Of a stretch of 64,000 nt of DNA, positions 7,719 to 35,422 are shown one piece after another. The DNA is from Nitrospirae bacterium CG02_land_8_20_14_3_00_41_53 (GTDB lineage Bacteria; Nitrospirota; Thermodesulfovibrionia; Thermodesulfovibrionales; SM23-35): contig PEUB01000036.1 in NCBI GenBank assembly GCA_002780895.1, forward strand, positions 5,547-69,546, given 5' to 3'. Within the stretch, counting starts at the first letter, position 1. The number at the start of each line of letters is the position of its first letter. Below the pieces are notes generated by a model. That model searched no databases. It was given only the letters and a program-made list of their open reading frames with translations, and was not told the DNA's origin. A program made the translations under genes and the position numbers.

Positions 7719-10114
7719 CAGTCAATCTTTTTTGACTTTCGGCTATTGGCTTTTTTCAGTGCAACCTTGAGTACATCATCCATTGTCTCGGCAAATGCAA
7801 ACTCCATATCCTTTTTGATATATTTTGGAATATCCTCAAGGTCTTTCTTGTTCCTCTTTGGAATAATTATCTTTTTTATTCCCATCCTCTTTGCAGCAAG
7901 TGTTTTTTCCTTCAGCCCTCCGATTGGAAGCACCCTGCCTCTCAGTGTAACCTCTCCGGTCATTGCAATATTCTTATTGACAGGCCTTCCTGTAAGGGCT
8001 GATGCAATCGAAGTAGCGATTGTAATACCTGCTGAAGGCCCATCTTTTGGTGTCGCACCTGCAGGGACATGGATATGAAGGTCTATTTTAGAAAATATAT
8101 CATCCTTTATGCCGAGTTTCTTTGATCTCGAACGCACATAACTCAAGGCAGCCTGGGCAGATTCCTTCATAACATCTCCAAGTTGTCCTGTCAGGGTAAG
8201 ATGGCCCTTGCCTTTCATGGTTGTTGCCTCTACATATATGATATCTCCCCCTGCCTCAGTCCATGCAAGACCTGTAGATACGCCTACCTCATCTTGTTCC
8301 ATCTCTTCTTCAGGCAGGTATTTAACTACGCCGAGGTATCTATGAAGATTTTGTGCGCCTATCACAAATGTTTTTTCTTTGCCCTCGACTATTTTTTTGG
8401 CCGCTTTCCTGCAAAGGTTTGCAATCTCCCTTTCGAGGTTTCTTACACCGGCTTCCCTTGTATACTGTGAGATTATATTAAAGAGTCCCGGGTCTGTGAT
8501 CTTCAGTACCTTACTGTTAAGACCATGTTCAAACAGCTGTTTTGGTATCAGATAGTTTTTTGCAATCCCAAGCTTTTCTTCGGTTGTGTAGCCGGATAGA
8601 TAGATTATCTCCATTCTGTCTCTAAGAGGGCTCGGTATAGTATCCACAAGGTTGCCTGTTGTAATAAACATAACCTTTGATAGGTCAAAAGGGACTGCAA
8701 GATAATGATCTGCAAATGAGTTATTCTGCTCCGGATCAAGAACCTCAAGAAGGGCTGAGGATGGGTCGCCCCTGAAGTCCATTCCTATCTTGTCAATTTC
8801 ATCCAGCATAAACACAGGGTTGTTTGTCCCCGCTGTCTTTATGCCCTGTGTTATTCTTCCAGGAAGAGCGCCAACATAAGTTCTTCTATGTCCTCTTATC
8901 TCTGCCTCATCCCTGACTCCACCCAGTGACATACGGACAAATTCTCTTCCTAATGCCCGTGCTATAGACTTGCCAAGAGAGGTTTTTCCAACACCTGGAG
9001 GACCAATAAAACATAGGATAGGGCCCTTCATTTTTTCTTTTAACTTTCTGACACTAATATACTCTAAAATACGCTCTTTTACCTTCTCGAGGTCGTAGTG
9101 ATCCTCATTAAGCACTTTTTCTGCAGCCTTTATATCGAGGTTATCTTTTGTAGATTTGGACCAGGGAAGCTCAACCATCCAATCAAGATATGTTCTAACA
9201 GTAGCTGATTCAGCGCTGTCAGGATGCATCTTTTCCAGGCGTTTGAGCTGCTTTTCAGCCTCTTCCATCACCTTTTCAGGCATTTTTGCTTCTTCGATCT
9301 TTTTCCTGAACTCTTTTATCTCTTCTGCCCTTTCATCAATGTCACCGAGTTCCTTTTGTATTGCCTTGAGCTGCTCTCTCAAAAAATACTCGCGTTGTGT
9401 CTTGCCTATTTCACCCCTGGCCTCAGATTGAATCTTCTGCTGGACTGTGAGAAGTTCAGTCTCTCTACTCAATATTTCGCTAACACGCTTTAGCCTCTGA
9501 ATAGGGTCTATTATCTCCAGTACCTCCTGTGATAGTTCTGTTTTTAATCCAAGATTTGAGGCAACAAGGTCTGCAAGTCTTCCAGGGTCTTCAATATTTT
9601 CAACGACTCCCATTATATCAGGAAGTATTGCTTTTCCAAGAGAAACAACCTTGTCAATCTGTTCTTTTACAGTCCTAATCTGTGCTTCATCTTCAATGGT
9701 GAGCATTGTTGGTTTTTGGTCATTTATCTTTTCTATTTTGGCTTTTAAAAAAGGTTCGGTCTGAGAATAGGTCAAGGCCTTTGCCTTGGTCAGACCCTGC
9801 ACAAGTATCTTCACCCTGCCGTCAGGAAGCTTGAGCGTCCTCATTATGATAGCAACAGTGCCTACTGAAAAGAGATCCTCAGGGATTGGATTTTCGATAT
9901 TTAGATCCTTCTGAGTAACGAGGAGCACCATTCTATTTGCTTTGAGGGAATATTCTATAGCCTTTATTGACATCTCCCTTCCAACAAAAAGAGGAAGTAT
10001 CATGTAAGGAAATACAACGATATCCCTCACAGGGAGCACAGGTAAGTTATCAGGTATCTCAACTTCCTTGTCAATCTTTTGTTCTACATCTACTACATCT
10101 ACTACATCTGCCAT
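7718..10114 (-). CDS. lon: ATP-dependent Lon protease
   Basis: 798 aa with LON N-domain, AAA+ Walker A GPPGVGKTS and the protease serine motif PKDGPSAG. Confidence 0.96.
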   Translation of the reverse strand: MADVVDVVDVEQKIDKEVEIPDNLPVLPVRDIVVFPYMILPLFVGREMSIKAIEYSLKANRMVLLVTQKDLNIENPIPEDLFSVGTVAIIMRTLKLPDGRVKILVQGLTKAKALTYSQTEPFLKAKIEKINDQKPTMLTIEDEAQIRTVKEQIDKVVSLGKAILPDIMGVVENIEDPGRLADLVASNLGLKTELSQEVLEIIDPIQRLKRVSEILSRETELLTVQQKIQSEARGEIGKTQREYFLREQLKAIQKELGDIDERAEEIKEFRKKIEEAKMPEKVMEEAEKQLKRLEKMHPDSAESATVRTYLDWMVELPWSKSTKDNLDIKAAEKVLNEDHYDLEKVKERILEYISVRKLKEKMKGPILCFIGPPGVGKTSLGKSIARALGREFVRMSLGGVRDEAEIRGHRRTYVGALPGRITQGIKTAGTNNPVFMLDEIDKIGMDFRGDPSSALLEVLDPEQNNSFADHYLAVPFDLSKVMFITTGNLVDTIPSPLRDRMEIIYLSGYTTEEKLGIAKNYLIPKQLFEHGLNSKVLKITDPGLFNIISQYTREAGVRNLEREIANLCRKAAKKIVEGKEKTFVIGAQNLHRYLGVVKYLPEEEMEQDEVGVSTGLAWTEAGGDIIYVEATTMKGKGHLTLTGQLGDVMKESAQAALSYVRSRSKKLGIKDDIFSKIDLHIHVPAGATPKDGPSAGITIATSIASALTGRPVNKNIAMTGEVTLRGRVLPIGGLKEKTLAAKRMGIKKIIIPKRNKKDLEDIPKYIKKDMEFAFAETMDDVLKVALKKANSRKSKKID

Positions 10115-10141
10115 CGTAACTCCTTATAGTTTTTCTAAATT

Positions 10142-11020
10142 TTAATTTTTTAATCTCGCTGCAACCTCAATAATGTACTTTTTAAGCTGTTCGGAAACCT
10201 GCGAGTTTTTCAATGAGAGGTCAATTGTTGCCTTAAGGTAGCCGATCTTATCACCTGCGTCATATCTTTTTCCAGTAAATAGATATCCATATATCGGGCG
10301 TTTTTTCAGCAAACCACAAAGTGCATCTGTCAGTTGTATCTCTCCTCCTTTGCCAGGGCCAATACCTTCGAGTATCTCAAAGATATCGGGGGTAAGGATA
10401 TACCTGCCAATTATTGCCATGTCTGACGGTGCATCGGTTAATCGGGGTTTTTCTACAAGATTGTTTATCCTGTATACATTGCCTTTTTCCCTTATTCCTT
10501 CAATCACCCCATATTTGTTTATATCTGGTATAGGAACCTGTTGAAGAGCAAGGATAGGAGAGTTAAATTCCTTATAAAGATTGATCATATGCTGAAGCAA
10601 GACGGTATCGGGGTCAATGATATCATCACTCAAAAGAACTGCAAAAGGTTCGTCTTTTACAAATGGCTTTGCACAATGTATTGCATGACCAAGTCCAATG
10701 GCCGCCTTCTGCCTGATATATGCAAAGTTCAGGTGGTTCAGGCGACTAATCTCTTCAAGAAGCCTCTTTTTACCAGTCCTTTTCAGATTCTCTTCGAGTT
10801 CGAAAGCAGAATCAAAGTGATCTTCTATAGCCCGTTTGTATTTACCCGTGATAATTATAAATTCTTCTATCCCGCATGCACGTGCCTCTTCAATTGCATA
10901 CTGGATCATCGGCTTGTCAACTATAGGCAGCATCTCCTTTGGAGATGCCTTTGTTGCAGGTAGAAACCTTGTCCCAAGCCCTCCTGCAGGAAGTATAGCC
11001 TTTCTAATCTTTTTTTCCAT
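10142..11020 (-). CDS. galU: UTP--glucose-1-phosphate uridylyltransferase
   Basis: KAILPAGGLGTRFLPATKASPKEMLP N-terminal signature; 292 aa. Confidence 0.92.
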   Translation of the reverse strand: MEKKIRKAILPAGGLGTRFLPATKASPKEMLPIVDKPMIQYAIEEARACGIEEFIIITGKYKRAIEDHFDSAFELEENLKRTGKKRLLEEISRLNHLNFAYIRQKAAIGLGHAIHCAKPFVKDEPFAVLLSDDIIDPDTVLLQHMINLYKEFNSPILALQQVPIPDINKYGVIEGIREKGNVYRINNLVEKPRLTDAPSDMAIIGRYILTPDIFEILEGIGPGKGGEIQLTDALCGLLKKRPIYGYLFTGKRYDAGDKIGYLKATIDLSLKNSQVSEQLKKYIIEVAARLKN

Positions 11021-11203
11021 ATTTACATAACTATTATAGAATAATTTACCTCAAATTACACAAAGATGTCATGAAAACGTTCTAATACCGTCATTGTAGG
11101 AAACTTTGCATAATTTCGGCTTAAATATTACATGAATATACTTGATAATTCAAGAAAAGGAGGGTCAACTGTTCCGCTTTTTCTCTTCCATATTCTCACC
11201 GTC

Positions 11204-12364
11204 CTAAGTCGAATCGGCCAATTCCGGCTGGATAGCGGGCAAGTATATCTTAAAGGTCGTTCCTCTACCCAACTTACTATCCACAATAATCCATCCTCCA
11301 TGTGCATTTACTATGGAATATGCAATTGTGAGGCCGAGGCCTGTCCCCTTACCAACTTCCTTCGTGGTGAAAAAAGGATCAAATATGTTCTGGATGTTAT
11401 TATCAGGAATGCCGCACCCTGTATCAGACACCGAAATACATACATACCTATCTGTCTTATCAGCATGTCTCGCAACACTGTATTTTTCAGTTTTGAATTC
11501 TAAGACACCCTTTCCATCCATAGCATCTGTTGCATTCAAGGTGAGGTTTATTAATACCTGTGTAAGCTGCCCCATGTCTGCCAGTATATCAGGGATATCA
11601 TCTTGAAGATTTAGCCTTATTTCTATCCCGTCCTTAACCGCATGGTATAGAAGACCCATGGTTTCTTCTATAAGGGTATTAATATCGATTTTCTTGAATT
11701 CTGAGGGAATCTTCCTGCCAAAGATAAGAAGCTGCTTTACCAGTGCAGCACCCCTTTGGCAGAGTGTACTTATAGTCTGTAGTCTTTCATAAAAAGGCGA
11801 GTCTTTCGAGATATCCTCAAGAATCAGTTCTGAAAACCCTAATATACCTGTCAGGAGATTATTAAAATCGTGGGCTATTCCGCTTGCAAGCCTTCCTACG
11901 GATTCCATCTTCTGGGCCTGGAAAAGTAACTGCTGAAACTTTTGTCTCTCTGTCTCTGCCTTTTCCTTAGCCTTGCGCTCAGCCCATATCTCAATTGCCC
12001 TTGAAACCCTTGCAGAAAGGCCTACAATGTGTTTCTTAAGGATGTAATCAATTGCCCCCTCTCTAAGGCTGTCCACAGCTATCTGCTCATTACCCATGCC
12101 CGTTATAAAGATTATAGGAGCATCTATCTTCTTCTCCTGACATATATGGATCGCCTCAATCCCCGTCATGTCAGGGAGCACATAGTCAGCGAGGATGACA
12201 TCCGCATCAAGGTCTGAAAGCTTCTCAAAAAACTCCTTTCTGTTTCTTGCCACTTCAAATGAGACGTCAAACCCGCCTTTTCTGAGCTCGTGGAGCTCAA
12301 GCTCTACATCATCAGGATTGTCCTCAAGAAGGAAGACCTTTAGTATTTTCTGTGTTGTGATCAT
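11204..12364 (-). CDS. Hybrid response-regulator receiver / histidine kinase (REC-HisKA-HATPase_c)
   Basis: N-terminal REC (LLEDNPDD...[10 protein letters not shown]), H-box [12 protein letters not shown] and a C-terminal ATPase with G-boxes (DTGCGI, GTGLGL). Confidence 0.88.
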
Positions 12365-12807
12365 GCTCTTACTGGTGGATGTTCATTAATCAAGAGCCAA
12401 TAAAGCCCTATATGTTTAACAGTCTCAACAAACTGGTTAAAGTCAACCGGCTTTTTTATATAACTGTTAACCCCTAAGTCATAGCTCTCTACGACATCCC
12501 TCTCTTCCTTTGATGATGTGAGAACCACGACAGGGATGAGTTTGCGCCTTCTGTCTACCTTTATCCTCCTCAGGACATCTATTCCGTCTACCTTAGGTAG
12601 TTTAAGGTCGAGCAGTATAAGGCCAGGAAGAGGGTGAGATGGATTAGAATACTTCCCTGTATAGAAGAGATAATCGAGTGCCTCCTGTCCATCACGAACA
12701 ATTTCAACAAGATTAACAATATTGTTTTTTTTGAGTGCATGAATAGTTAGTTCTACATCATCAGGGTTATCCTCTACTAAAAGAATATTTACATTTCCAT
12801 TAATCAT
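12361..12807 (-). CDS. Single-domain response regulator (CheY-like)
   Basis: 148 aa with [23 protein letters not shown] and a conserved K. It overlaps both neighbours by 4 nt, suggesting operon coupling. Confidence 0.9.
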
Positions 12808-22656: not shown

Positions 22657-23439
22657 ATGTTAATAATAGGGGAGAAGCTAAGCATAATAGCCAAGAGGGT
22701 AAGAGAGGCTATGATGAAAAAAGACAAAGGACCTATACAGGATATCGCAACTTCTCAATGGAAAGCAGAAGCAGGGATGATAGATGCGAATATAGGTCCG
22801 GCTGAAGACGGTGGTGGGGAATTAATGCAGTGGATGGTCACTACTATACAGGAGGTTGTCCCCCTTCCTTTGTGTCTTGACACAACAAATTATAATGCAA
22901 TAGAGGCTGGCCTCAAGGTACACAATAACCAGTGGGGAAGACCCCTGATAAATTCTACATCAAATGATCCCGAGAGGTTTGCAATGCTTGAACTTGCAGC
23001 AAAATATAATGCTCAGATAATCGGTCTTACAGTCGGTAAGGGCGGACTCCCGGCAGATGCCGAGGAAAGGGCTGCCATCGCAGCAGAGATTATGGCAAGG
23101 GCTGCGGAATATGGAGTTCCGCTTGAGGACTTATATCTCGACCCCCTTGTCCTGCAGATTGCAACTTCACAGGATCATGCATTAAAGGTTATAAAAGCAA
23201 TAAAGATGTTTCAGGAGCTGAATGATCCGCCTATGAAGACAGTAGTGGGACTTAGTAATGTTTCGAATGGATGTCCCAAACAATTGAGACCCATATTAAA
23301 CAATTATTTTCTTTCTCTATTAATATACGAAGGTCTTACTGCTGCCATAGCAGATCCGCATGAGATAACGCCAACAGTTAAGACTATAGATGTAATACTG
23401 GGCAAGACACTTTATGCCCATTCGTATCTGGAAATGTGA
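22657..23439 (+). CDS. acsE: Methyltetrahydrofolate:corrinoid/iron-sulfur protein methyltransferase
   Basis: 260 aa, collinear with my recollection of Moorella AcsE: an MLIIGE start, CLD(T/S)TN, INSTS and GLSNVS motifs. Confidence 0.93.
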   Translation: MLIIGEKLSIIAKRVREAMMKKDKGPIQDIATSQWKAEAGMIDANIGPAEDGGGELMQWMVTTIQEVVPLPLCLDTTNYNAIEAGLKVHNNQWGRPLINSTSNDPERFAMLELAAKYNAQIIGLTVGKGGLPADAEERAAIAAEIMARAAEYGVPLEDLYLDPLVLQIATSQDHALKVIKAIKMFQELNDPPMKTVVGLSNVSNGCPKQLRPILNNYFLSLLIYEGLTAAIADPHEITPTVKTIDVILGKTLYAHSYLEM

Positions 23440-23443
23440 AAAA

Positions 23444-23527
23444 GAGCTAAGAGCTAAGAGCTAAGGCAAAAAACTCCATGCTCTTTGCTATTCGCTCTAT
23501 GCTAATTGCTCTTTGCTCTTTGCTAAA
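23444..23527. repeat. Heptad-phased array element (12 units of 7 nt) in the acsE-acsD spacer
   Basis: gagctaa x3, ggcaaaa, aactcca, tgctctt, tgctatt, cgctcta, tgctaat, tgctctt x2, tgctaaa. It belongs to the same family as 7095..7164, in opposite orientation. Confidence 0.85.
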
Positions 23528-23539
23528 GAGGAGGTTGAA

Positions 23540-24481
23540 ACGGCTTTTGCCCCACCAAAAGATACTTATTCAGGTAAGGTTTACTCAGTAAATATCGGCA
23601 CTGCCTCAGGAGAAGTTACCTTTGGAGGTGAGAATATACTTCCATTCCATACCTTTGAAGGTGTAGCGCCGAACAGACCTCTTATTGCATTTGAGATACA
23701 GGATGTTCCCCCAACTGACTGGCCAGAAAATGTACAAAAACCGTATAAGGATGTTTCGAATGACCCTGTATCATGGGCAAAATTTTGTCAGGATACTTTA
23801 AAGGCCAGGGCCATAGCGCTCAGGCTCATAGGCACGCACCCTGATAGGGAGAATCGTTCGCCTGAGGATGCAGCAAAGACTGTCAGGGATGTTCTTTCTG
23901 CAATAAGCATTCCGTTGATTATACTCGGAAGTAACCATGCTGAGAAGGATGCCTCTGTTTTAATTGCTGCTGCAGAGGCTGCAAAAGACAGGAACTGTAT
24001 TATAGGTAAGGCACAGGAGGCGAATTATAAGACGATTGCTGCTGCTGCAATGGCTAACAAACACAAATTGATTGCTATGTCTGAGCTTGATATAAATCTT
24101 TCGAAACAGTTGAACATCCTTATCACACAGATGGGGTTTGACAAAGAGAGATTAATTACAGACCCGATGTGTTCGGCCCTCGGGTACGGTCTTGAATATA
24201 CCTATTCGGTTATGGAGAGGATAAGGCTTGCTGCCCTTACACAGAATGATATAACCATGCAGCCACCAATGTTGGGTGACATAGGGATGTATGTCTGGAA
24301 GGTAAAAGAGGCGCAGGCTAGCGAAGCAGATTTACCTCAGTGGGGTTCTTTAGAAGAGAGAGGAATAGCATGGGAGGCTGTTACAGCAACAGCATTAATT
24401 ATAGCTGGTGTTGAACTTCTTATAATGCGTCACCCCAAGGCTGTTGAAGCAGTAGAAAAGGTGATTGAAGAACTTGTTTAA
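23540..24481 (+). CDS. acsD: Corrinoid/iron-sulfur protein small subunit (AcsD/CdhD-like)
   Basis: ORF 23513..24481 with VTFGGENILPFHTFEG and a TIM-barrel-like remainder. The only canonical in-frame start (TTG 23513) lies inside the repeat array and has no SD. A strong SD (GGAGG, 23530..23534) sits 5 nt before an in-frame ACG at 23540. The 5' end is therefore uncertain. Confidence 0.85.
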   Translation, partial: TAFAPPKDTYSGKVYSVNIGTASGEVTFGGENILPFHTFEGVAPNRPLIAFEIQDVPPTDWPENVQKPYKDVSNDPVSWAKFCQDTLKARAIALRLIGTHPDRENRSPEDAAKTVRDVLSAISIPLIILGSNHAEKDASVLIAAAEAAKDRNCIIGKAQEANYKTIAAAAMANKHKLIAMSELDINLSKQLNILITQMGFDKERLITDPMCSALGYGLEYTYSVMERIRLAALTQNDITMQPPMLGDIGMYVWKVKEAQASEADLPQWGSLEERGIAWEAVTATALIIAGVELLIMRHPKAVEAVEKVIEELV

Positions 24482-24702: not shown

Positions 24703-26055
24703 ATGGCTTTAACTGGCGTTGAAATATTTAAACTCCTACCAAAAACAAATTGTAAGAAGTGCGGGTTCCTTACATGTCTTGCCTTTGCAATGAAACTTGC
24801 CCAGAGGCAGGCCTCCTTAGATTTATGCCCTGATGTCTCTGAAGAAGCAAAACAGAAACTCGGTGAGGCATCTGCTCCTCCTGTAAGACCGATTATATTC
24901 GGTGCAGGTGATAGGTCGGTTAAGATGGGCGAGGAGACAGTGCTTTTCAGACATGATAAAAGGTTTGTTAACCCGTCTGTTTTTGCACTTGAAATAAAAG
25001 ATACATTTTCAGAAGCTGATATAAATAGTAAGATTGAGGAAGTTCTTAACTCAGAAATAGACAGGGTAGGTCAAAAACTGAGGATTGATGCAGTAGCTAT
25101 TATAAATGAATCTAATGACGTAAGAAGGTTTGAGGCTGCTTCAAAGATTATTGCAATAAAAGCACCTGACATCCCTGTAATTATCTGTACAGCCAATCCT
25201 CAGGCTGCTGAGGCAGCGGTAAAACTATTTACAGATAAGAAGCCAATCATATATGGAGTAAATTCAGAAAATACAGAGGCAATGGTCAATATCGCAAAGA
25301 CATATAAAGCAACTCTCGGTGTGGCGGCAAAATCACTTGATGAACTATCTGTCCTTACAGAAAAAGTCAAAGCAGCCGGTGTTGCTGATATAGTAATAGA
25401 TTCGGGTGCAAGGAATGCAAAGGAAATCATAGAGCATAATACATTAGTCAGAAGGGCAGCTATAAGGAAGAATTTCAAACCCCTCGGTTATCCTGTCATA
25501 ACCTTTGCACAGCGTGAAGATAGCCTTGTCGAGGTGCTTATAACAGTAATTGGGGTTGCAAAATACTCTTCAATAATTGTCCTGAGCAGTATTGAGAAGT
25601 GGAAGAACCTTGCCTTATTTACTTTGAGGCAGAATCTCTATACAGACCCACAGGTTCCGATGCAGGTTGAGCAGAAGGTTTATAAGTTTGGTGAACCAAA
25701 ATCTAATTCGCCATTGCTTATTACAACGAATTTTTCTCTTACTTATTTTATAGTCTCGGGAGAGGTTGAAAACAGTAAGGTCCCGAGTTATCTTGCTGTT
25801 ATGGATTGTGAAGGTCTTTCGGTACTTACAGCATGGGCAGCAGGGAAGTTTACAGCGGCAAGGATCGCACAGTTCATAAAGGAAAGCGGGATAGAAAATG
25901 ATATAAACGATAGGGAGCTTGTTATCCCTGGCTATGTGGCGATACTAAGCGGCGCAATAGAGGATAAACTTGAAGGCTGGAAAGTGACTGTTGGCCCGCG
26001 AGAGGCTAATGCAATACCAGCATTCTTAAAATCTAGGATGGCAAGCAAAAAATAG
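24703..26055 (+). CDS. acsC: Corrinoid/iron-sulfur protein large subunit (AcsC/CdhE-like)
   Basis: 450 aa with the N-terminal 4Fe-4S motif CKKCGFLTCLAFAM...C, followed by TIM-barrel and B12-binding regions. GGAGGG RBS. Confidence 0.92.
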   Translation: MALTGVEIFKLLPKTNCKKCGFLTCLAFAMKLAQRQASLDLCPDVSEEAKQKLGEASAPPVRPIIFGAGDRSVKMGEETVLFRHDKRFVNPSVFALEIKDTFSEADINSKIEEVLNSEIDRVGQKLRIDAVAIINESNDVRRFEAASKIIAIKAPDIPVIICTANPQAAEAAVKLFTDKKPIIYGVNSENTEAMVNIAKTYKATLGVAAKSLDELSVLTEKVKAAGVADIVIDSGARNAKEIIEHNTLVRRAAIRKNFKPLGYPVITFAQREDSLVEVLITVIGVAKYSSIIVLSSIEKWKNLALFTLRQNLYTDPQVPMQVEQKVYKFGEPKSNSPLLITTNFSLTYFIVSGEVENSKVPSYLAVMDCEGLSVLTAWAAGKFTAARIAQFIKESGIENDINDRELVIPGYVAILSGAIEDKLEGWKVTVGPREANAIPAFLKSRMASKK

Positions 26056-26079: not shown

Positions 26080-28278
26080 ATGTCTAAGTTAATAGCCTCA
26101 GCTGCTATAAAAGGTGCACATACGCTTGTTAAAAAGGCTGAGGATATGCTCCAGAAGGTTATCGTTGAAAAAGGTGAAGACTTCGCTTTTGAATTTCCTG
26201 ACACAGCTTTTTATCTTCCGATGATTTATGCAATGACAACCTTCCCAGTTAAAACACTTGGGGATATGAGGGTTGCGCTGGGTATGGCAAAGGAACTGCT
26301 TCATGAAGAGCCGGAAGAGCATTTATGGAAGCCGTATCTCGGCGAGGCGCTGGACTCAGGGATGGCAACACTCTTTGCTGAAGAGATAATTCTCGCATTA
26401 AAGTATATCAACGGTCTTGAACCAGCAAAAGACACTGAGACAGGCTATGTTTATAATGGATTCATCACCGATACTATCCAGAGGAATCTGGGCATCCAGC
26501 TCGTTGACGGCACGATGCCAGGCTTTGCAGTCATTATAGGCGCGGCTCCGAATGACGAAACAGCGGTAAATATCGTCAGGAAACTTCAGGGAAAGAATAT
26601 TCTCACATTCCTCTCAGGACATGTAAACGGTAACAGCGTTACAAAACAGCTCCTGAGAAAAGGTGTTGAATTAGGATGGGACACAAGAATCGTCCCTCTC
26701 GGGCCCGATACCGAGCACGCACTTTATGCAGCAGACTGGGCAATAAGGGCGTCCCTGATATACGGAGGCAAAAAACCCGGCGATTACAAAGAACATCTCA
26801 AATACCAGAAAGACAGGGTCTTTGCATTTGCAGTGGTTCTTGGTGAACTTGATGACATAATATGGACTACAGGCGCAGGAGCAATTAACATGGGATTCCC
26901 GGCAATATGCGACACTGACGTGCCGGTGATACATCCGACAGGTGTATGTATTTATGAAGAGGTAGAGAAAGAGCTTGACCACAACAAGATCGTGCAGAAG
27001 GCAATAGAGGTTAGAGGTTTGAAGATTATCGTTGAGAAACCACCTATCCCTGTTGCATATGGCCCGGCATTTGAGGGTGAAAGAATAAGGAAAGAAGATA
27101 TGTTCTTAGAGTTTGGCGGTACTCGTACACCTTCATTCGAATGGGTAAGAATGAGGGGAATGGAGGATATAGAGGACGGTAAGGTTGTAGTTGTTGGAAA
27201 TAATTGGCAGGAGAGATATGAAAAGGGTGGTGAGATGCCACTCGGAATAGTTGTTGATGTTGCAGGTAGAAAAATGCAGAAAGATTTCGAGCCGGTTATA
27301 GAAAGAAAGATTCATTCTAATATCAATGAGGCTCAGGGTGTATGGCATATGGGTCAGAGGGATATAAACTGGATGAGAATAAGTCATAATGCTAAGAAGG
27401 AAGGATTTACCCTTGAGCATCTCGGAATAATCAATGCTACTATGACCCACCACAGATTCAGGGCAATTGTGGATAAGGTTCAGGTAACGATTTATACAGA
27501 TGGGTCGGATGTATTAAGACTTATGGAAGAGGCAAGAAGTGTTTACAAAGAGCGTGACCAGAGGCTCGGCGGACTCGTAGATGAGGCAGTTGATATATTC
27601 TATTCGTGTCTCCTCTGTCAATCTTTTGCACCAAGCCATGTATGCGTAATAAGCCCTGAAAGGCTTGGTCTCTGCGGGGCATATAGCTGGCTTGATTGTA
27701 AGGCTGCATTCGAGATAGACCCAACAGGTGGGAATCAGCCAATAATAAAGGGAGAGCTTCTGGATGAAAGATATGGCAGATATACTGGCATTGACGAATA
27801 TCTGAAGAAGGCATCAGGGGGTGCGGTCGAGACGCTTAACCTTTATACCATAATGGAAAATCCCATGACCTCATGTGGTTGTTTTGAATGCATTATTGCG
27901 ATAATTCCAGAGGCAAACGGTGTGATGATAGTTCAGCGTGGTCATACAGAAATGACACCTGTAGGGATGAAATTTTCGACATTGGCAGGTAGTGTTGGCG
28001 GAGGCACACAGAATCCTGGGTTTATGGGAATTGGAAGGAACTTTATAGTCAGTAAAAAGTTTCTCCATGGTGACGGGGGAATTAAAAGGATAGTCTGGAT
28101 GACAAAGAATTTGAAAGAAAGTCTTAAAGAAGCATTTGAGAAAAGGGCTGAAGAGGAAGGTGTCCCTGATCTTCTTGATAAGATAGCTGATGAGACAGTG
28201 GCCGAAGACTCAGAAAAATTACTCGAGTTTCTCACAAGTGTAGGACATCCAGCACTTGAGATGGAACCTATGTTATGA
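26080..28278 (+). CDS. acsB: Acetyl-CoA synthase (A-cluster subunit, AcsB/CdhC)
   Basis: 732 aa with A-cluster cysteines CLLCQSFAPSHVC...C and SCGCFEC. AGGAGG RBS. Confidence 0.95.
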   Translation: MSKLIASAAIKGAHTLVKKAEDMLQKVIVEKGEDFAFEFPDTAFYLPMIYAMTTFPVKTLGDMRVALGMAKELLHEEPEEHLWKPYLGEALDSGMATLFAEEIILALKYINGLEPAKDTETGYVYNGFITDTIQRNLGIQLVDGTMPGFAVIIGAAPNDETAVNIVRKLQGKNILTFLSGHVNGNSVTKQLLRKGVELGWDTRIVPLGPDTEHALYAADWAIRASLIYGGKKPGDYKEHLKYQKDRVFAFAVVLGELDDIIWTTGAGAINMGFPAICDTDVPVIHPTGVCIYEEVEKELDHNKIVQKAIEVRGLKIIVEKPPIPVAYGPAFEGERIRKEDMFLEFGGTRTPSFEWVRMRGMEDIEDGKVVVVGNNWQERYEKGGEMPLGIVVDVAGRKMQKDFEPVIERKIHSNINEAQGVWHMGQRDINWMRISHNAKKEGFTLEHLGIINATMTHHRFRAIVDKVQVTIYTDGSDVLRLMEEARSVYKERDQRLGGLVDEAVDIFYSCLLCQSFAPSHVCVISPERLGLCGAYSWLDCKAAFEIDPTGGNQPIIKGELLDERYGRYTGIDEYLKKASGGAVETLNLYTIMENPMTSCGCFECIIAIIPEANGVMIVQRGHTEMTPVGMKFSTLAGSVGGGTQNPGFMGIGRNFIVSKKFLHGDGGIKRIVWMTKNLKESLKEAFEKRAEEEGVPDLLDKIADETVAEDSEKLLEFLTSVGHPALEMEPML

Positions 28279-28282
28279 GACA

Positions 28283-28403
28283 GTCATTAGTTACACCCCT
28301 CACCCTAACCCTCTTCCGCAAGGGGAGAGGGGACTTATTTTATTATCCCCTCCCTTGACGGGAGGGGATAGAGGGGAGGGTGAACTACTGATGACTAATG
28401 ACT
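28283..28403. repeat. Composite TIR-bounded element filling the acsB-cooS spacer
   Basis: 10-nt perfect terminal inverted repeats agtcattagt / actaatgact enclose two GC-rich palindromes. These are 28294..28334 (cacccctcaccc-taa-ccctcttcc-gcaa-ggggagagggg) and 28343..28382 (ttatcccctccc-ttgac-gggaggggata-gaggggagggtg). Confidence 0.85.
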
Positions 28404-28418
28404 TGATATGGAGGATAT

Positions 28419-30410
28419 ATGGAGAAAAAAATAGTAAAGAGTGCGAATGAAGCTGCTGAACAGATTATAGAGTGGGGTGAATCCCACGGTATAGAGACAT
28501 GCTTTGACAGGGCACAGAGACTTAAACCATGCCCTATCGGCGCTGCCGGTGCATGCTGTAAGACATGTCACATGGGACCCTGTAGGTTTGTTGGAAAGAA
28601 TGCCGAAGAGGAGGCAAGAGGGGTATGTGGCGCTACGCTGCCTACAGTTGCTTCAAGAAATCTGCTTAGAATGGCAATAGCAGGATCAGCAGCACATACG
28701 GACCATGCGAGAGATATGGCCTTTATCCTGCTTGCTGTTGCCAATGGGGAGACAAGTGATTTTAGAATAACCGATGTGAGAAAGCTTTATAAGGTTGCAG
28801 GAATCCTTGATATAGAGTTTGGAAATGGAATGGCTGTCAATGATGTTGCAAGAGATGTCGCGCTGAGATTAATTAAAGATTTCGGAAGGCAGAAGGGAGA
28901 GTTAAATTATATTAAAAGAGCTCCCAATAAGACTCAGGAAAGATGGAAAAAGTGGGGTATTACTCCAAGAGGAATTGACAGGGAAATAACAGAGGCAATG
29001 CATCGCACTCACATGGGTGTTGACCATGCCCCTGATAACCTTCTTTTAAGCGCCCTCAGGGTTTCCCTCGCTGATGGCTGGGGAGGTTCTATGATCTCAA
29101 CTGATATTACAGATATTCTTTTTGGTACTCCTCGACCAGTAAAGGCAGAGGCGGGTTTTGGGATATTTAAAGAAGATGAGGTCAATATTGTTGTGCATGG
29201 ACATGAACCCTCACTTGCAGAAATGATTGTGGATGTAGTAAATGAACCTGAGATGATTGCATATGCAAAATCAAAGGGTGCAAAGGGAATAAATCTTGGT
29301 GGCATGTGCTGTACTGCAAATGAGGTATTAATGAGGCACGGGATCCCAACAGCAGGTGGATTTACAAATCAGGAGTTAGCGATCATGACAGGACTCATTG
29401 ATGCAATAACAGTTGATGTCCAGTGTATAATGCCTGCATTAGTAGAACTTTCAAGGAAATTTCATACAAAGGTAATTACCACATCTTATAAGGCAAAAAT
29501 ACCGGGTGCTGTTCATATTGAATATGACGAGCACAGGGCGAAGGAAATCGCAAGGGAGATAGTAAAGTTTGCTATAGATAACTATCCTAATAGAAAGGCA
29601 GAAGGGATACATATAAATCAGAAATTTCCGGTTATAGCAGGTTTTTCACATGAATATATTGAATATATGCAGGGAGGTAGATGGAGGGCATCCTTCAGGC
29701 CATTGAATGATGCAATTATGGCAGGTAGGATTCGTGGAGTTGTTGGTCTTGCAGGTTGTGACAATCCACGGGTTCCTTCACAAGGGCTTCATCGCTTTCT
29801 TGCAGTTGAGCTAATCAAGAATGATGTGCTTATACTATCAACAGGGTGTGGATCTCATGCATGTGGGACCGCGGGATATCTTATACCAGAGATGGCATTG
29901 GAAAATGCCGGTCCAGGATTAAGAGAGGTATGCGAGGCAATAGGGGTTCCTCCTATCCTTCACCTTGGCTCATGTGTAGATAATTCAAGAATTTTAACGA
30001 TTGTCTCTGCAATGGCAGCAGAAGGCGGCCTCTCTGATGAGATTGGGGGTATGCCTGTTGTAGGTATTGCCCCTGAATGGATGTCAGAGAAGGCGATTTC
30101 TATCGGGTGTTATCTCGCTGCATCAGGCGTCCCTGTGATATTTGGCGGTGAATCACCAGTGAGTGCAAGTGAGGAAGTAACTAAGATAATGACAGAGGTA
30201 TGGTTTGAAAGATTCAAGGGTGCGTTACATTTTGAGCCTGACCCTGAAAAAATACTGAGCCTTACCCTTGAATATATAGATAGGGCCAGGGAAGCACTTA
30301 AACTTAGAAAATATGAACCCGGCAAGTTTGGCGCTGAAAGGGTTCTTCTGGATATGGCTGCAAGGCGTGAACTTGAAAAGGCAGCTAAGCCGCATATAGG
30401 AATATATTAG
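28419..30410 (+). CDS. acsA: Anaerobic Ni-Fe-S carbon monoxide dehydrogenase catalytic subunit (CooS/AcsA)
   Basis: 663 aa with an N-terminal D/B-cluster motif CPIGAAGACCKTCHMGPCR and C-cluster region motifs (HGHEP, GGMCCTANE, GCDNP, GSCVDNSR). Confidence 0.95.
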   Translation: MEKKIVKSANEAAEQIIEWGESHGIETCFDRAQRLKPCPIGAAGACCKTCHMGPCRFVGKNAEEEARGVCGATLPTVASRNLLRMAIAGSAAHTDHARDMAFILLAVANGETSDFRITDVRKLYKVAGILDIEFGNGMAVNDVARDVALRLIKDFGRQKGELNYIKRAPNKTQERWKKWGITPRGIDREITEAMHRTHMGVDHAPDNLLLSALRVSLADGWGGSMISTDITDILFGTPRPVKAEAGFGIFKEDEVNIVVHGHEPSLAEMIVDVVNEPEMIAYAKSKGAKGINLGGMCCTANEVLMRHGIPTAGGFTNQELAIMTGLIDAITVDVQCIMPALVELSRKFHTKVITTSYKAKIPGAVHIEYDEHRAKEIAREIVKFAIDNYPNRKAEGIHINQKFPVIAGFSHEYIEYMQGGRWRASFRPLNDAIMAGRIRGVVGLAGCDNPRVPSQGLHRFLAVELIKNDVLILSTGCGSHACGTAGYLIPEMALENAGPGLREVCEAIGVPPILHLGSCVDNSRILTIVSAMAAEGGLSDEIGGMPVVGIAPEWMSEKAISIGCYLAASGVPVIFGGESPVSASEEVTKIMTEVWFERFKGALHFEPDPEKILSLTLEYIDRAREALKLRKYEPGKFGAERVLLDMAARRELEKAAKPHIGIY

Positions 30411-30453
30411 TGTAGCCGCACCCTTTAGGGTGCGTTTATTATAGCAGGCTACA
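30411..30453. repeat. TGTAGCCGC-family hairpin element
   Basis: tgtagccgcaccctttagggtgcg...gcaggctaca, immediately after the cooS stop. Related to 21908..22002. Confidence 0.75.
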
Positions 30454-30966: not shown

Positions 30967-33294
30967 ATGAAAAGATTTAATAGTGTTAACGACCTAATTT
31001 CCTATAGAAAACTACTTCTTACAGAAGGATTATTAATCCCGGGGAAGAACAGGATTAAAGTTTGCTGTGGTACAGCGTGTGGTGCATCAGGTTCTCACAA
31101 GGTTGTAAGGGCATTAGAGGATTACCCTAAAAGCGATTTAGATATTGAACTCATAAAGACAGGGTGTCAGGGTCTTTGTCAAAAAGGTCCTGTTATGAAG
31201 GTCGAACCATATGATTATTTCTATCAGAAAGTCAGTCCTGATAAAGCATCAGAGATACTCTCCACATATATAACAGGACTCCCTGCACGAGACCTTCTTT
31301 ATAGAGAATCATTCATCAATCCTCCGATTGAGAAGATGGAGGGGGTGCCTTTTTATAAGAAGCAGTTAAGAGTTGTACTTAGAAATAATGGAAGGATAGA
31401 TCCCTGTAATATATCCCACCATATTGCTGTTGGTGGGTATTTAGCAATTGAGAAGATATTTTCCTCAATGACTCCAGAGCAAGTTCTTGATGAGGTAAAA
31501 AAGGCAAATATCAGGGGTCGAGGTGGTGCAGGATTTCCAGCTGGCATAAAATGGGGATTCGCTAAAAAGTCTCCTGTTTCAAATAAGATGGTAATAGCCA
31601 ACGGTGATGAAGGTGACCCTGGCGCTTTTATGGACAGGTCAGTTATGGAGGGTGACCCTTTCAGCTTGCTTGAGGGGATGCTTATATGTGCCTATGTAAT
31701 TTGCGCACATTACGGGTTTATTTATGTCCGTCATGAGTATCCACTTGCTGTTAAGAATCTGGGTATAGCAATTAAGAAGGCAGAGGAAATTGGACTCTTG
31801 GGTAAAAATATCCTCGGGACAGGGTTTGATTTTACAGTTCACATAAGGGAAGGCGCTGGAGCTTTTGTATGTGGCGAGGAGACAGCACTCATGGCATCAG
31901 TCGAGGGAGAAAGGGGATTTCCAAGACCAAAACCTCCATTTCCTGCTGAGAGTGGTCTATGGAATAGCCCTACGATTATTAACAATGTTGAGACACTTGT
32001 AAATATTCCTTATATTATAGAAAAGGGAGCAGATTGGTTTCTGAGTATGGGGACACAAAATTCACCAGGGACGAAGGTCTTTGCCCTTACAGGAAAGGTT
32101 GTTGACACAGGGCTTGTTGAGGTACCTATGGGAATAACCCTCAGGGAGATTATCTTCGATATTGGTGGAGGAATTATAAATAATAAAAAGTTTAAGGCAG
32201 TACAGACAGGAGGGCCTTCAGGTGGATGCATTCCCGAGCAATATCTTGATCTGCCTGTAGATTATGATTCTCTTGCAAAGGTTGGTTCGATAATGGGTTC
32301 AGGCGGAATGGTAGTGATGGATGAGGATAACTGCATGGTAGATATTGCTAAGTTTTTCCTCTCCTTTACACAGTCTGAGTCATGCGGGAAATGTCCGCCA
32401 TGCCGAATTGGGACATATCAGATGCTCCAAATCCTTGAAAAAATAACGTCTGGTAATGGTGAGCCTGGAGATATAGAGAAACTTGAGAAGCTCGGGAAAC
32501 TTGTAAAGACAGGCTCTCTTTGTGGCCTTGGCCTGACTGCACCAAATCCAGTGCTAACAACAATTAAATATTTCCGTGAAGAATACGAAGAGCACATACA
32601 TGATAAATACTGCAGGGCAAAGGTTTGTAGCGGTCTTGGCATGTTTATCATAGAACAAAGTGAATGTATCCTTTGTGGTCTATGCAAGCAGGCATGTGCC
32701 TTTGATGCAGTTAAGGAGACGAGAAGGAGATTCTTTATTGACCAGGATTACTGCACAAGGTGTAAGGCTTGCTACCTTGCATGTCCCACAGGTGCTGTGA
32801 AGATAAAGAAGAAAAGACATGTAAGGCTTGAAGAGGTATTCGGGATACCACCTGAAAGCATAGAAATCATGGAAAGGAGATGTAGAATGACATTAAGAGA
32901 TATCTTAAAATCAAAACCGCCTATGATCGTGACTATTCAAAAAAATCGCACTATTAGAGATGCAGTATATACCATGAGCGAGAAGAATGTCAGCGGGATT
33001 TTTGTGGTTGATGAAAATAATAAATTGGCAAGTATATTTACGGAAAGGGATATTGTGCGATGTGTTTTTAATAATATATCTCTCGATGAGACTATCGAGA
33101 ATATAATGAGACGTGATATTACAACATTTGATCCCTCGACAGAAATAAGTTCAGCAATAACGGTCGCTTCAAGAAAGAAGATCAGACATATACCTGTTGT
33201 GGAAGGAGATAACATTGTGGGAATGATTACTTTTAGGGATTTAGTTTCATATCTGCTTCCAGAAATCTGCTATATGTCAGAAGCACTTTATTGA
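30967..33294 (+). CDS. NuoF/HydB-like FMN- and NAD(P)H-binding FeS subunit with N-terminal 2Fe-2S domain, C-terminal 2x[4Fe-4S] and a fused CBS pair
   Basis: 775 aa. Motifs: CCGTACGASGS...GCQGLCQKGP; RGRGGAGFPAG; ANGDEGDPGAFMDR; ESCGKCPPCRIGT; CILCGLCKQAC / CTRCKACYLACP. The C-terminal ~135 aa is a tandem CBS region (IFVVDENNKLASIFTERDI, IPVVEGDNIVGMITFRDL). Confidence 0.88.
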   Translation: MKRFNSVNDLISYRKLLLTEGLLIPGKNRIKVCCGTACGASGSHKVVRALEDYPKSDLDIELIKTGCQGLCQKGPVMKVEPYDYFYQKVSPDKASEILSTYITGLPARDLLYRESFINPPIEKMEGVPFYKKQLRVVLRNNGRIDPCNISHHIAVGGYLAIEKIFSSMTPEQVLDEVKKANIRGRGGAGFPAGIKWGFAKKSPVSNKMVIANGDEGDPGAFMDRSVMEGDPFSLLEGMLICAYVICAHYGFIYVRHEYPLAVKNLGIAIKKAEEIGLLGKNILGTGFDFTVHIREGAGAFVCGEETALMASVEGERGFPRPKPPFPAESGLWNSPTIINNVETLVNIPYIIEKGADWFLSMGTQNSPGTKVFALTGKVVDTGLVEVPMGITLREIIFDIGGGIINNKKFKAVQTGGPSGGCIPEQYLDLPVDYDSLAKVGSIMGSGGMVVMDEDNCMVDIAKFFLSFTQSESCGKCPPCRIGTYQMLQILEKITSGNGEPGDIEKLEKLGKLVKTGSLCGLGLTAPNPVLTTIKYFREEYEEHIHDKYCRAKVCSGLGMFIIEQSECILCGLCKQACAFDAVKETRRRFFIDQDYCTRCKACYLACPTGAVKIKKKRHVRLEEVFGIPPESIEIMERRCRMTLRDILKSKPPMIVTIQKNRTIRDAVYTMSEKNVSGIFVVDENNKLASIFTERDIVRCVFNNISLDETIENIMRRDITTFDPSTEISSAITVASRKKIRHIPVVEGDNIVGMITFRDLVSYLLPEICYMSEALY

Positions 33295-33325
33295 AGTAAT
33301 AATGAAATGATAATATTAGGTAACT

Positions 33326-35422
33326 ATGAAAAGACTCGATAGTATTGATGACCTTATTGTCCTCCGTAACCTTCTATTAAAAGAAGGGGTATTAGCCCCT
33401 GGTAAAAAAAGGATAAAGGTTTGTTGTGGGCTTCCCTGTAGCACCTTGGGTTCCCATGAAGTTACAAAGGAATTAGAGAATGAAATCTCTAAGAACAGTC
33501 TGGATATCGAAGTGATAAAAACAGGATGCCAGGGTCTTTGCCAGAGAGGACCCCTTATAAAGACCGAACCATATAATTATTTCTATCAGAAAGTCAGTCC
33601 AGAAAAAGTAGGAGAGATTATATCTAAGACCTTTTTAGCAGGACGACCTGTAAGAGAGTGTCTTTTCAGAGATTCTTTTCTTGAGCCACCCAAAGAAGTA
33701 ACTGAAGAGATTCCTTTTTATAAGAAGCAGCTGAAGGTTGCACTCAGGAATACTGGTTGTATAGACCCGCATAGTATATCTCACTATATTGTAACCGGCG
33801 GGTATATGGCTATTGAAAAGATATTTTCCTCCATGAGCCCAGAACAAGTACTTGAGGAGGTAACAAAGGCTAACCTCAGGGGCCGGGGTGGTGCAGGGTT
33901 CCCCGCAGGGAAAAAGTGGAAACATACCAAAAGTTCTCGTTGTGACATAAAATTTGTGATAGCCAATGGTGATGAAGGTGACCCTGGCGCTTTTATGGAC
34001 AGGTCTGTCATGGAAGGTGATCCTCACAGCCTGCTCGAGGGAATGCTTATATGTGCTTATGCAATTAGTGCACATTATGGGATTATTTATGTCCGTCACG
34101 AGTACCCTCTTGCCATTAAGAATTTGGGAATAGCTATTAATCAAGCGCAGGAGCTTGGGCTTATAGGTAAAAATATCCTCGGGACAGGATTTGATTTTAC
34201 AGTTCACATAAGGGAAGGCGCGGGTGCCTTTGTGTGCGGTGAATCTACTGCTCTTATTGCATCGGTAGAAGGAGAAAGGGGTATGCCGCGACCAAGACCT
34301 CCGCGACTTTCTGAAATTGGAGGAGGGGTTTGGGGATATCCAACTAATTTGAATAATGTAGAGACTTATGCTTGTATGCCTCAAATAATCGAGAAGGGAG
34401 CCGATTGGTTCCTGAATATAGGAACAGAAAATTCACCTGGTACAAAAGTATTTTCTCTTGCAGGAAAGGTTAAAAATACAGGGCTTATTGAAGTGCCTAT
34501 GGGGATAACCCTGAGGGAGATCATATTCGATATTGGGGGAGGAATATTAAATAATAAGAAATTCAAGGCAGTGCAGACAGGAGGGCCTTCGGGCGGGTGT
34601 ATCCCTGAGCAATATCTTGATCTGCCTGTAGATTATGATTCTCTTGCAAAGGTTGGCTCAATAATGGGTTCAGGTGGAATGGTCGTAATGGATGAGGACA
34701 ACTGTATGGTAGATGTTGCTAAGTTTTTCCTCTCCTTTACACAGGCTGAGTCATGCGGGAAATGTCCTCCATGCAGGATAGGTACATACCAGATGCTCCA
34801 AATCCTCGAAAAGATAACATTAGGCAATGGAGAGGAAGGAGATATAGGAAAACTTGAAAGGTTTGGGAAACTTGTAAAGGCAGGTTCCCTCTGTGGTCTT
34901 GGCCAGAATGCACCAAACCCTGTTCTTACGACCATCAAATATTTCCGTGAAGAATACGAAGAGCATATAAGAGATAAATATTGCAGGGCAAAGGTCTGCA
35001 CCGGACTCGGATTACTCTCAATAAACACTGAAATCTGCTACCAGTGTATGCGCTGCATGGATACATGTCCATTTGAGGCAATAAAAGAATCCAGGGAAGG
35101 TGGATTTTATATAGACCAGGTGCTCTGCCAGAGATGTAAGGCATGCTATATGGCATGTCCCTTAGGCGCTATAGAGATTAAAGAACAGCCCTTTACCTAT
35201 ATAGATACAGAGCTATGCTATCTCTGCGGCCGCTGTAAAGATGTATGCAGGATTAATGCAATAAAGGAAACTTCAACCGGATTCATGATAGATCGCTTTG
35301 TATGTAGGAAGTGCGGTGATTGTTACAATATATGCCCTATGGGAGCTGTGAGGTTTGAGAAAAGAACCCACCCCCCTGTGTCCCCCCTTAGTAAGGGGGG
35401 AATTAAAGAGGGGTGCCCTTAG
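33326..35422 (+). CDS. Second NuoF/HydB-like subunit (tandem paralog) with C-terminal polyferredoxin extension
   Basis: 698 aa with the same core motifs as the upstream paralog. Four CxxCxxCxxxCP-type clusters follow at the C-terminus. The last ~17 aa (HPPVSPLSKGGIKEGCP) are encoded by a GC-rich palindromic repeat. Confidence 0.88.
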   Translation: MKRLDSIDDLIVLRNLLLKEGVLAPGKKRIKVCCGLPCSTLGSHEVTKELENEISKNSLDIEVIKTGCQGLCQRGPLIKTEPYNYFYQKVSPEKVGEIISKTFLAGRPVRECLFRDSFLEPPKEVTEEIPFYKKQLKVALRNTGCIDPHSISHYIVTGGYMAIEKIFSSMSPEQVLEEVTKANLRGRGGAGFPAGKKWKHTKSSRCDIKFVIANGDEGDPGAFMDRSVMEGDPHSLLEGMLICAYAISAHYGIIYVRHEYPLAIKNLGIAINQAQELGLIGKNILGTGFDFTVHIREGAGAFVCGESTALIASVEGERGMPRPRPPRLSEIGGGVWGYPTNLNNVETYACMPQIIEKGADWFLNIGTENSPGTKVFSLAGKVKNTGLIEVPMGITLREIIFDIGGGILNNKKFKAVQTGGPSGGCIPEQYLDLPVDYDSLAKVGSIMGSGGMVVMDEDNCMVDVAKFFLSFTQAESCGKCPPCRIGTYQMLQILEKITLGNGEEGDIGKLERFGKLVKAGSLCGLGQNAPNPVLTTIKYFREEYEEHIRDKYCRAKVCTGLGLLSINTEICYQCMRCMDTCPFEAIKESREGGFYIDQVLCQRCKACYMACPLGAIEIKEQPFTYIDTELCYLCGRCKDVCRINAIKETSTGFMIDRFVCRKCGDCYNICPMGAVRFEKRTHPPVSPLSKGGIKEGCP
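35367..35415. repeat. GC-rich nested palindromic element forming the 3' end of the NuoF-2 gene
   Basis: cccacccccc-tgt-gtcccccc-ttagtaa-gggggg-aattaaa-gaggggtg. The stop codon is at 35420..35422. Confidence 0.8.

Follow-up and report, generated by a model that had tools for sequence, protein, structure and literature searches.

Why should a bacterium keep, side by side, two genes for the same flavin subunit whose products are nearly identical in the middle and different at both ends? The question is raised by a stretch of 64,000 nucleotides (nt) from Nitrospirae bacterium CG02_land_8_20_14_3_00_41_53 (GenBank assembly GCA_002780895.1, contig PEUB01000036.1, positions 5,547–69,546; hereafter the window), a Thermodesulfovibrionia-like member of Nitrospirota in which two tandem NuoF/HydB-type (BfuB) genes, paralog A (BfuB1) and paralog B (BfuB2), adjoin carbon monoxide dehydrogenase/acetyl-CoA synthase (CODH/ACS) genes in a + strand gene run at 22.6–38.1 kb (Table 1). 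The locus would encode a soluble Bfu-type (HydABC/NuoEFG-like) flavin/iron–sulfur module with two differentiated flavin subunits rather than the usual one. We consider it probable that the two serve as alternatives in one such module beside CODH/ACS, one of NAD(H) type and the other of NADP(H) type, and that their shared core has been homogenised by recurrent gene conversion. Both proteins would have to dock on the same single NuoE-like and NuoG-like partners, and for that reason the core (the SLBB and N3-cluster domains) would be under very strong purifying selection. Because the copies would then stay similar enough for homologous recombination, short conversion tracts between them could homogenise the core again and again, with selection keeping the pocket and the terminal domains distinct.

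Anatomy of the tandem paralogs

The sequence-only reading of the window had described two adjacent NuoF/HydB-like genes with common core motifs, and both are indeed intact open reading frames, 31 nt apart. The products share an N-terminal 2Fe-2S thioredoxin-like domain, a Complex1_51K flavin mononucleotide (FMN) domain, an SLBB domain and an NADH_4Fe-4S domain (Pfam), and can be aligned over their first ~615 residues. Paralog A ends in two CxxCxxCxxxC motifs followed by two CBS domains and paralog B in four CxxCxxCxxxC motifs; these tails, likewise read correctly from the letters, are confirmed by Pfam and by the cysteine motifs. The CBS pair is probably an adenine-nucleotide sensor. All of the best 120 listed 90%-identity homolog clusters (69–82% identity to paralog A) carry a CBS domain, and nearly all are full-length.

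Both paralogs contain the domain set of BfuB proteins (PF01512, PF10531, PF10589 and Fer4), which Schut et al. define by IPR011538/019554/019575/017896 (PMC9304861). The clusters that are absent from non-bifurcating homologs, namely an N-terminal [2Fe-2S], a His/Cys site (His525, Cys531 and Cys536 in Acetomicrobium mobile) and a C-terminal 2x[4Fe-4S] (PMC9304861; PMC8880783), are also present in A and B: the N-terminus is PF01257-like, the H-x5-C-x4-C site lies at A543 and B547, and the alignment with A. mobile HydB (7t2r_B) spans all three. BfuC- and BfuA-type subunits are encoded alongside, which completes the gene set of a Bfu complex.

Similarity between the two proteins is strongly uneven. 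The stretch REIIFDIGGG...LEKIT holds 4 substitutions in ~103 residues, against 60% identity over the N-terminal 128 residues and 52% over the first C-terminal ferredoxin segment, in line with the earlier impression of an almost unchanged core between divergent termini.

Gene conversion within the conserved core

Two exact nucleotide runs had been noticed between the genes and had prompted the suggestion of gene conversion. Both were verified: one of 50 nt (32236–32285 = 34607–34656) and one of 38 nt on the GDEGDPGAFMDR codons (31603–31640 = 33968–34005); further exact runs measure 32, 29, 29, 25, 23 and 22 nt. The 38-nt run may be a second short conversion tract, although it is not significant alone. 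Since its nucleotides are largely conserved family-wide (other family members match 30–36 of the 38 positions), it was not counted as independent evidence.

Within the window pair, the Nei–Gojobori proportions of synonymous (pS) and nonsynonymous (pN) differences were 0.63 and 0.22 at the N-terminus, 0.58 and 0.14 in the FMN domain, and 0.48 and 0.04 in the core (here alignment columns 391–560), with the lowest pS, 0.28, at columns 441–480. At sites with identical amino acids, codons agree at 0.67 in the core against 0.53–0.56 in the flanks and 0.44–0.60 in pairs taken from different genomes. Divergence is thus not uniform along the pair, and the signal recurs in other genomes. For the window pair alone, at most 17 identical synonymous codons follow one another (permutation P = 0.015), and the comparison of core against rest gives P = 0.012 (Fisher). 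The protein-level likeness has another source: because core orthologs in other genomes are 84–91% identical to either paralog and the synonymous sites are well diverged, the near-identity of the core proteins mostly reflects family-wide purifying selection, not conversion. The suggestion of conversion is therefore supported in the form of localized, recurrent short tracts, but most of the protein identity does not stem from it.

The comparison rests on ~30 related Nitrospirota loci gathered by one genome scan, one metagenome scan and exact-protein look-ups (numbered here with the prefix L). A single bfuB gene stands between the nuoE-like gene and a small downstream gene in 18 of them, and ~9 have two. 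Two flavin subunits in one module, held to be unusual in the sequence-only reading, are therefore a minority arrangement that recurs in the clade, not a one-off. The tails of the two-copy loci vary, with a CBS pair, four ferredoxin motifs, a short end or a separate 135-residue CBS gene.

In sliding-window comparisons, the two paralogs are mutually closest only in one tract (Table 1), where their nucleotide identity is 0.87–0.92 against 0.84–0.87 to the best ortholog. The same region, at about residues 381–520, was mutually best in the window, L011, L087 and L088, with peak within-pair identities of 0.92, 0.90, 0.97 and 0.93, respectively. Nucleotide trees (LogDet neighbour-joining, 200 codon bootstraps) join tandem partners in the core with support of 92% (window), 97% (L011) and 98% (L088), and at 0–6% in the N-terminal, mid and ferredoxin segments. 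Outside the core, genes group by type: paralog A with L011 gene B and L091 gene A (bootstrap 89), and all genes with four ferredoxin motifs together (100). Protein trees repeat this grouping, placing paralog A with L091 gene A and L011 gene B (87%) and paralog B with L088 gene B, L011 gene A, L091 gene B and two single-copy genes (90%) at the N-terminus, and uniting all four-motif genes in the ferredoxin segment (100%). Both marks of conversion are hence present, paralogs being closer than orthologs inside the tract and grouping by type outside it.

Synonymous sites give the same picture. The tandem pairs of five genomes have a core pS of 0.42–0.49 against 0.58–0.78 in the flanks, and at core synonymous sites the nearest relative of each gene in these genomes is its own tandem neighbour, save for the close orthologs L087 and L089. 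Core codon identity at identical-amino-acid sites is 0.64–0.71 within genomes and 0.43–0.60 between them. Codon bias was rejected as the source of the within-genome likeness, because the identity expected at saturation from per-genome codon usage is equal within and between genomes (~0.39). Exact runs within genomes reach 50 nt (window), 95 nt (L011) and 146 nt (L087), with others of 53 and 45 nt, against a cross-genome maximum of 35 nt. A Sawyer-type condensed-fragment permutation test (1191 variable sites among 21 genes, 5000 permutations) agrees: the 50-nt run of the window spans 33 polymorphic sites, a length reached in 0 of 5000 permutations (P < 0.0002), and four other tandem pairs also have P ≤ 0.001. 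The lowest P is shared by seven of the 210 gene pairs, six of which are tandem pairs or the cross pair L087A–L089B.

The tracts lie at different positions (residues 450–497 in L087, 411–441 in L011 and 424–439 in the window). Independent lineages (four to five genomes) thus have short conversion tracts of different ages, all within one and the same conserved segment; that of the window is not recent.

The L087 genes (8001–10328 and 10349–12427) share a 146-nt identical stretch at codons ~451–499, with flanks that are 75–81% identical. No other recent conversion tract among the data is as clear.

Nucleotide pockets and competing explanations

The two copies also differ in the dinucleotide pocket. 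That of paralog A is of the canonical NADH type (F198, E305, K322, F325); that of paralog B is remodelled (H200, S307, R324, R327), with a two-residue GG insertion at ~332. The positions of Escherichia coli NuoF E183, K200 and F203 are E, K and F in A, and S, R and R in B. In NADH-bound A. mobile HydB, adenine is sandwiched by Phe180 and Phe307 and the ribose is hydrogen-bonded by Glu287 (PMC8880783); these positions are F, F and E in A, and H, R and S in B. Thermoanaerobacter kivui HydABC uses NADP+ and the Acetobacterium woodii enzyme NAD+, and Arg340 of the T. kivui protein contacts the bound nucleotide (PMC10021017). T. kivui HydB reads CGES320TAL...RPPR340, as paralog B does, and is the sole sharer among five solved homologs with displayed pocket alignments; at S320 and R340, B has S307 and R327, and A has E305 and F325. 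Because paralog B has these Ser/Arg substitutions in common with the NADP-dependent T. kivui HydB, it most likely uses NADP(H), which supports the earlier suggestion of different nucleotide specificities. In complex I, a mutation of NuoF Glu183 reportedly opens the enzyme to NADPH (work of Morina et al., 2011).

Across loci the pockets fall into two types. Type I (GIKWGF, CGEETAL, KPPFP) occurs in paralog A; type II (GKKWKH, CGE(S/A)TAL, RPPR(L/V)SE and the two-residue insertion) occurs in paralog B and in every single-copy locus, and among 169 fetched loci is limited to those of Nitrospirota. The best 120 listed homolog clusters, all CBS-bearing, divide into 43 of type I and 77 of type II. 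Type I and type II FMN domains form sister clades in trees with outgroups, at the base of the family, so that the split between the pockets is older than the conversion tracts. From the residues of these pockets we infer that the ancestral single-copy gene would have used NADP(H), and paralog A NAD(H). In two homologs from outside Nitrospirota, L052 and L145, Gly replaces the ribose-binding Glu and Arg the adenine-stacking Phe (G/K/R); this may be a further nucleotide pocket that was remodelled independently.

Pocket type and tail type have recombined among loci, and the conserved core is therefore also a crossover point. In L011 (genes 7297–9192 and 9271–11352), the second gene combines an N-terminus and FMN domain like those of paralog A with a four-cluster tail like that of paralog B, which is evidence that domains have been shuffled between paralogs across the conserved core. 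In L091, L093 and L095 the CBS pair is a separate 135-residue gene just 3′ of bfuB (7344–7751, 7913–8320 and 7742–8149, respectively), which is a fission or a fusion of the regulatory module.

How far could simpler histories explain the core? Purifying selection alone, with the identical runs arising from shared codon preference and chance and no exchange of DNA, fits the 84–91% identity of core orthologs, the pN of 0.04 beside a pS of 0.48, the placement of the 38-nt run on family-conserved nucleotides and the modest two-sequence tests. It leaves unexplained why codon identity is in excess within genomes, in the core only and over an equal baseline, why core bootstraps reach 92–98% in three genomes, why runs extend to 95–146 nt in L011 and L087, and why five pairs give permutation P ≤ 0.001; it is already disfavoured, and we hold it to be quite improbable. 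Equally hard to sustain are independent, fairly recent duplications in each lineage, with the other segments replaced by foreign alleles or diverging very fast: three separate segments would need parallel replacement in every lineage, the supposedly replaced segments form type clades across genomes (87–100% bootstrap), the two pocket types branch as sisters at the family's base, and tracts that differ in position and age between genomes fit repeated conversion. Recombination with other alleles clearly happens (the chimaeric gene B of L011 is an example), and the shuffling of pocket types and of tail types (CBS, four ferredoxin motifs, short, separate CBS gene) among loci is what such a history would leave; even so, we judge it distinctly unlikely.

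Other readings concern what the two copies do. They look functional: no cofactor motif is broken, every segment has a pN/pS far below 1 and both types have orthologs in other genomes. That one copy is instead a decaying or silent duplicate is hardly credible in view of two intact frames in which no FMN, Fe-S or His/Cys ligand motif is missing, the conservation of each type's orthologs elsewhere and the identical protein on contigs of many independent assemblies. Both flavin subunits might also sit in one complex, a ferredoxin-linked transhydrogenase or a CO/ferredoxin oxidoreductase serving both nucleotide pools. The pockets differ as those of NAD- and NADP-type enzymes do, 31 nt separate the genes, whose operon has one BfuC and one BfuA, this BfuA is similar to the C-terminal half of StnC-type transhydrogenase subunits and lacks their NADPH-binding half, and the solved HydABC enzymes are oligomers of ABC units, which makes mixed assemblies conceivable (PMC10021017). 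Most relatives, however, manage with one BfuB, three two-copy loci have two NADH-type pockets, and with one BfuC and one BfuA gene a competition for the same docking site is simpler; we think such a complex unlikely. Its elaborated form, a module holding NADH and NADPH FMN sites at once, in which the CBS pair gates the NADH arm by adenylate status and conversion preserves the docking core, seems doubtful to the same degree. If true, a ferredoxin-dependent transhydrogenase, or a CO-driven enzyme reducing both nucleotide pools, would be built here on a plan that has not been described before.

Flavin subunits of NAD(H) and NADP(H) type that serve as alternatives on a shared, recurrently converted docking core remain the reading that we favour, and several observations weigh against it. 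NADP(H) use is read from two Ser/Arg substitutions held in common with one characterised enzyme, and paralog B also has a two-residue insertion and a His that are absent from T. kivui; for the NADP-specific HytB, the literature searched gives no established pocket determinants. Both copies have an NADH-type pocket in L011, L087 and L089, and a NAD/NADP division of labour is therefore not universal among two-copy loci. As for conversion, the two-sequence tests are modest (P ~0.01–0.03), and the core pS of the window pair is still high (0.48), so that conversion in the window is old or limited to short tracts. The core protein tree joins paralogs A and B at 48% only, and the tandem pair of L091 shows no tract and is not significant. 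The trees are neighbour-joining, not maximum likelihood, and are built on metagenome-derived sequences. Third-position-only LogDet trees give low support (13–36%); with 170 sites near saturation, we regard them as uninformative, not contradictory. Finally, a terminator-like hairpin stands between cooS and the Bfu module, whose coupling to CODH/ACS is putative.

Bfu-type enzymes set the balance of ferredoxin, NADH and NADPH in Wood–Ljungdahl organisms, and the determinants of their nucleotide choice are poorly defined. The locus offers a natural paired experiment, in which a near-identical, putative docking core carries pockets that differ at the Ser/Arg positions separating T. kivui from A. 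mobile HydB. It suggests that the CODH/ACS-linked module of subsurface Nitrospirota was ancestrally NADP-linked and that some lineages added a NAD-linked, CBS-regulated alternative. It is also a clean, multi-lineage case of conversion limited to a segment that two diverging paralogs would have to keep fit for shared partners, with domain shuffling around it.

Neighbouring genes and known systems

Table 1. Coordinates of the CODH/ACS genes, the Bfu-type genes and associated features in the window.
Feature	Position	Strand	Remarks
acsE-like; acsD-like; acsC-like	22657–23439; 23513–24481; 24703–26055	+	Pfam Pterin_bind, CdhD, FeS on identical contigs
acsB; cooS	26080–28278; 28419–30410	+	Pfam CdhC/ACS_CODH_B_C and Prismane
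GC-rich hairpin and T-run, CGCACCCTTTAGGGTGCG TTTATTATAG	30417–30434	+	Directly after cooS stop; terminator consensus match only
NuoE/HydC-like [2Fe-2S] subunit (BfuC-type), 161 residues	30468–30953	+	PF01257, E = 1.3e-48
Paralog A (BfuB1), 775 residues	30967–33294	+	Intact open reading frame
Homogenised tract, paralog A	32107–32526	+	Residues ~381–520, SLBB and N3-cluster domain; holds 32236–32285
Paralog B (BfuB2), 698 residues	33326–35422	+	Intact open reading frame
Homogenised tract, paralog B	34478–34897	+	Holds 34607–34656
FMN-less relative of the BfuB C-terminal half, 205 residues	35440–36057	+	Pfam NADH_4Fe-4S and Fer4
NuoG-like BfuA-type subunit, 673 residues	36085–38106	+	Fer2_4, NADH-G_4Fe-4S_3, 2xFer4, molybdopterin-like domain

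The order of the CODH/ACS genes is constant across all related loci, and in every one of them the gap from the end of cooS to the nuoE-like gene is 57 nt. In the window a terminator-like hairpin lies in this gap and is possibly an attenuator or a terminator. A second GC-rich hairpin with a T-run lies directly after the acsB stop codon (28309–28331, +), and the two may be attenuators that set the stoichiometry of CODH/ACS and Bfu-type genes. A perfect inverted repeat (CCCCCCTTAGTAAGGGGGG, 35382–35401, +) occupies the last codons of paralog B, just 5′ of the ribosome-binding site of the next gene.

In the NuoE-like protein, matches to the NCBIfam HoxE/NuoE models fall under their cutoffs. The 205-residue protein, whose gene is preceded by a GGAGG ribosome-binding site, has an N3-type [4Fe-4S] four-helix domain, an H-x4-C-x4-C motif and 2x[4Fe-4S], and aligns with residues 465–626 of PDB 7p5h_B. 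Every related Nitrospirota locus has kept its gene, placed between bfuB and bfuA, and by its domains the protein would be a third member of the BfuB family within the operon. For the BfuA-type protein, the Pfam search found neither a Molydop_binding nor a GltD/NfnB-type domain, and Pfam and PDB alignments together show no hydrogenase, formate dehydrogenase (FDH)-type or GltD-type catalytic domain. Its best PDB matches are the C-terminal halves of ~1170-residue StnC-type chains (9bov_A 564–1105 and 8oh5_C 559–1104), and it looks like a Stn-type BfuA without the NADPH-binding GltD half. Its assignment as a formate dehydrogenase was dropped, as it lacks Molydop_binding and is NuoG-like or StnC-C-terminal-like.

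The 775-residue protein and the same neighbours occur, identical, on 62–95 kb contigs of five independent ENA, JGI and NCBI assemblies (including GCA_009993295.1), and the identical protein is listed in 144 blocks of the sequence collection. An assembly chimera was rejected because protein and gene order are identical in the five assemblies. The nearest named relatives are Nitrospirota/Thermodesulfovibrionales metagenome-assembled genomes and Candidatus Sulfobium.

Among known systems, the closest likeness is to the BfuB/HydB subunits of Bfu enzymes. Paralog B aligns full-length with those of A. mobile (7t2r_B), T. kivui (8a6t_B), A. woodii (7q4v_B/8a5e) and Thermotoga maritima (7p5h_B) at E = 1e-186 to 1e-223, and both paralogs align end to end with 7t2r_B, 8a6t_B, 7q4v_B, 8oh5_B and 9n5u_B. 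The N-terminal 2Fe-2S, the FMN domain, the N3-type cluster, the His/Cys ligands of the B2 site and the C-terminal 2x[4Fe-4S] are all shared, as are the accompanying NuoE-like and NuoG-like partner genes. The locus differs in its tandem BfuB genes with different pockets, one bearing a CBS pair and the other a second 2x[4Fe-4S], in the extra FMN-less half-BfuB gene, and in a BfuA without a hydrogenase, FDH-type or GltD-type catalytic domain. A text search of the Bfu survey for 'CBS' or 'two BfuB' gave no occurrence (PMC9304861). The Codh-Bfu type predicted there (Schut et al. 2022, PMC9304861) resembles it in the clustering of Bfu genes with a Ni-CODH gene; its examples are four Firmicutes sequences only, with the CODH genes between bfuB and bfuA (PMC9304861), whereas here, in Nitrospirota, a complete CODH/ACS operon lies upstream and a hairpin separates cooS from the module. 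Literature searches on NuoEFG-like genes beside CODH/ACS in Thermodesulfovibrionia found nothing specific.

The StnABC/NfnABC enzymes (Nfn-Bfu; 8oh5, 9n5u), which link NADH, NADPH and ferredoxin in Wood–Ljungdahl organisms, have BfuB- and NuoE-type subunits in common with the window, and their StnC-type C-terminal half is the best alignment of its BfuA. Fused to their BfuA is a flavin adenine dinucleotide-containing NfnB/GltD-like domain that provides the NADP(H) site (PMC9304861). The BfuA of the window has no such domain, its alignment with StnC-type chains starting at their residue ~560, and any NADP(H) site of the module would instead be the remodelled FMN pocket of the second BfuB. The NuoE–NuoF–NuoG part of complex I has a homologous FMN/NADH subunit, in which RGRGGAGF, GDEGDPG, CGEET and the N3 cysteines align; unlike the paralogs, complex I NuoF has neither the N-terminal 2Fe-2S domain nor the C-terminal ferredoxin clusters. 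The paralogs score 480 and 461 bits against TIGR01959, under its cutoff of 558.65, and the gene list of the window has no complex I membrane-arm genes adjacent to the locus. A further parallel is the concerted evolution of duplicated bacterial genes by gene conversion, of which tufA/tufB of enterobacteria are an example. There, too, paralogs within a genome resemble one another more than they do their orthologs; here, conversion is limited to one internal segment of ~0.4 kb, with functional divergence on both sides.

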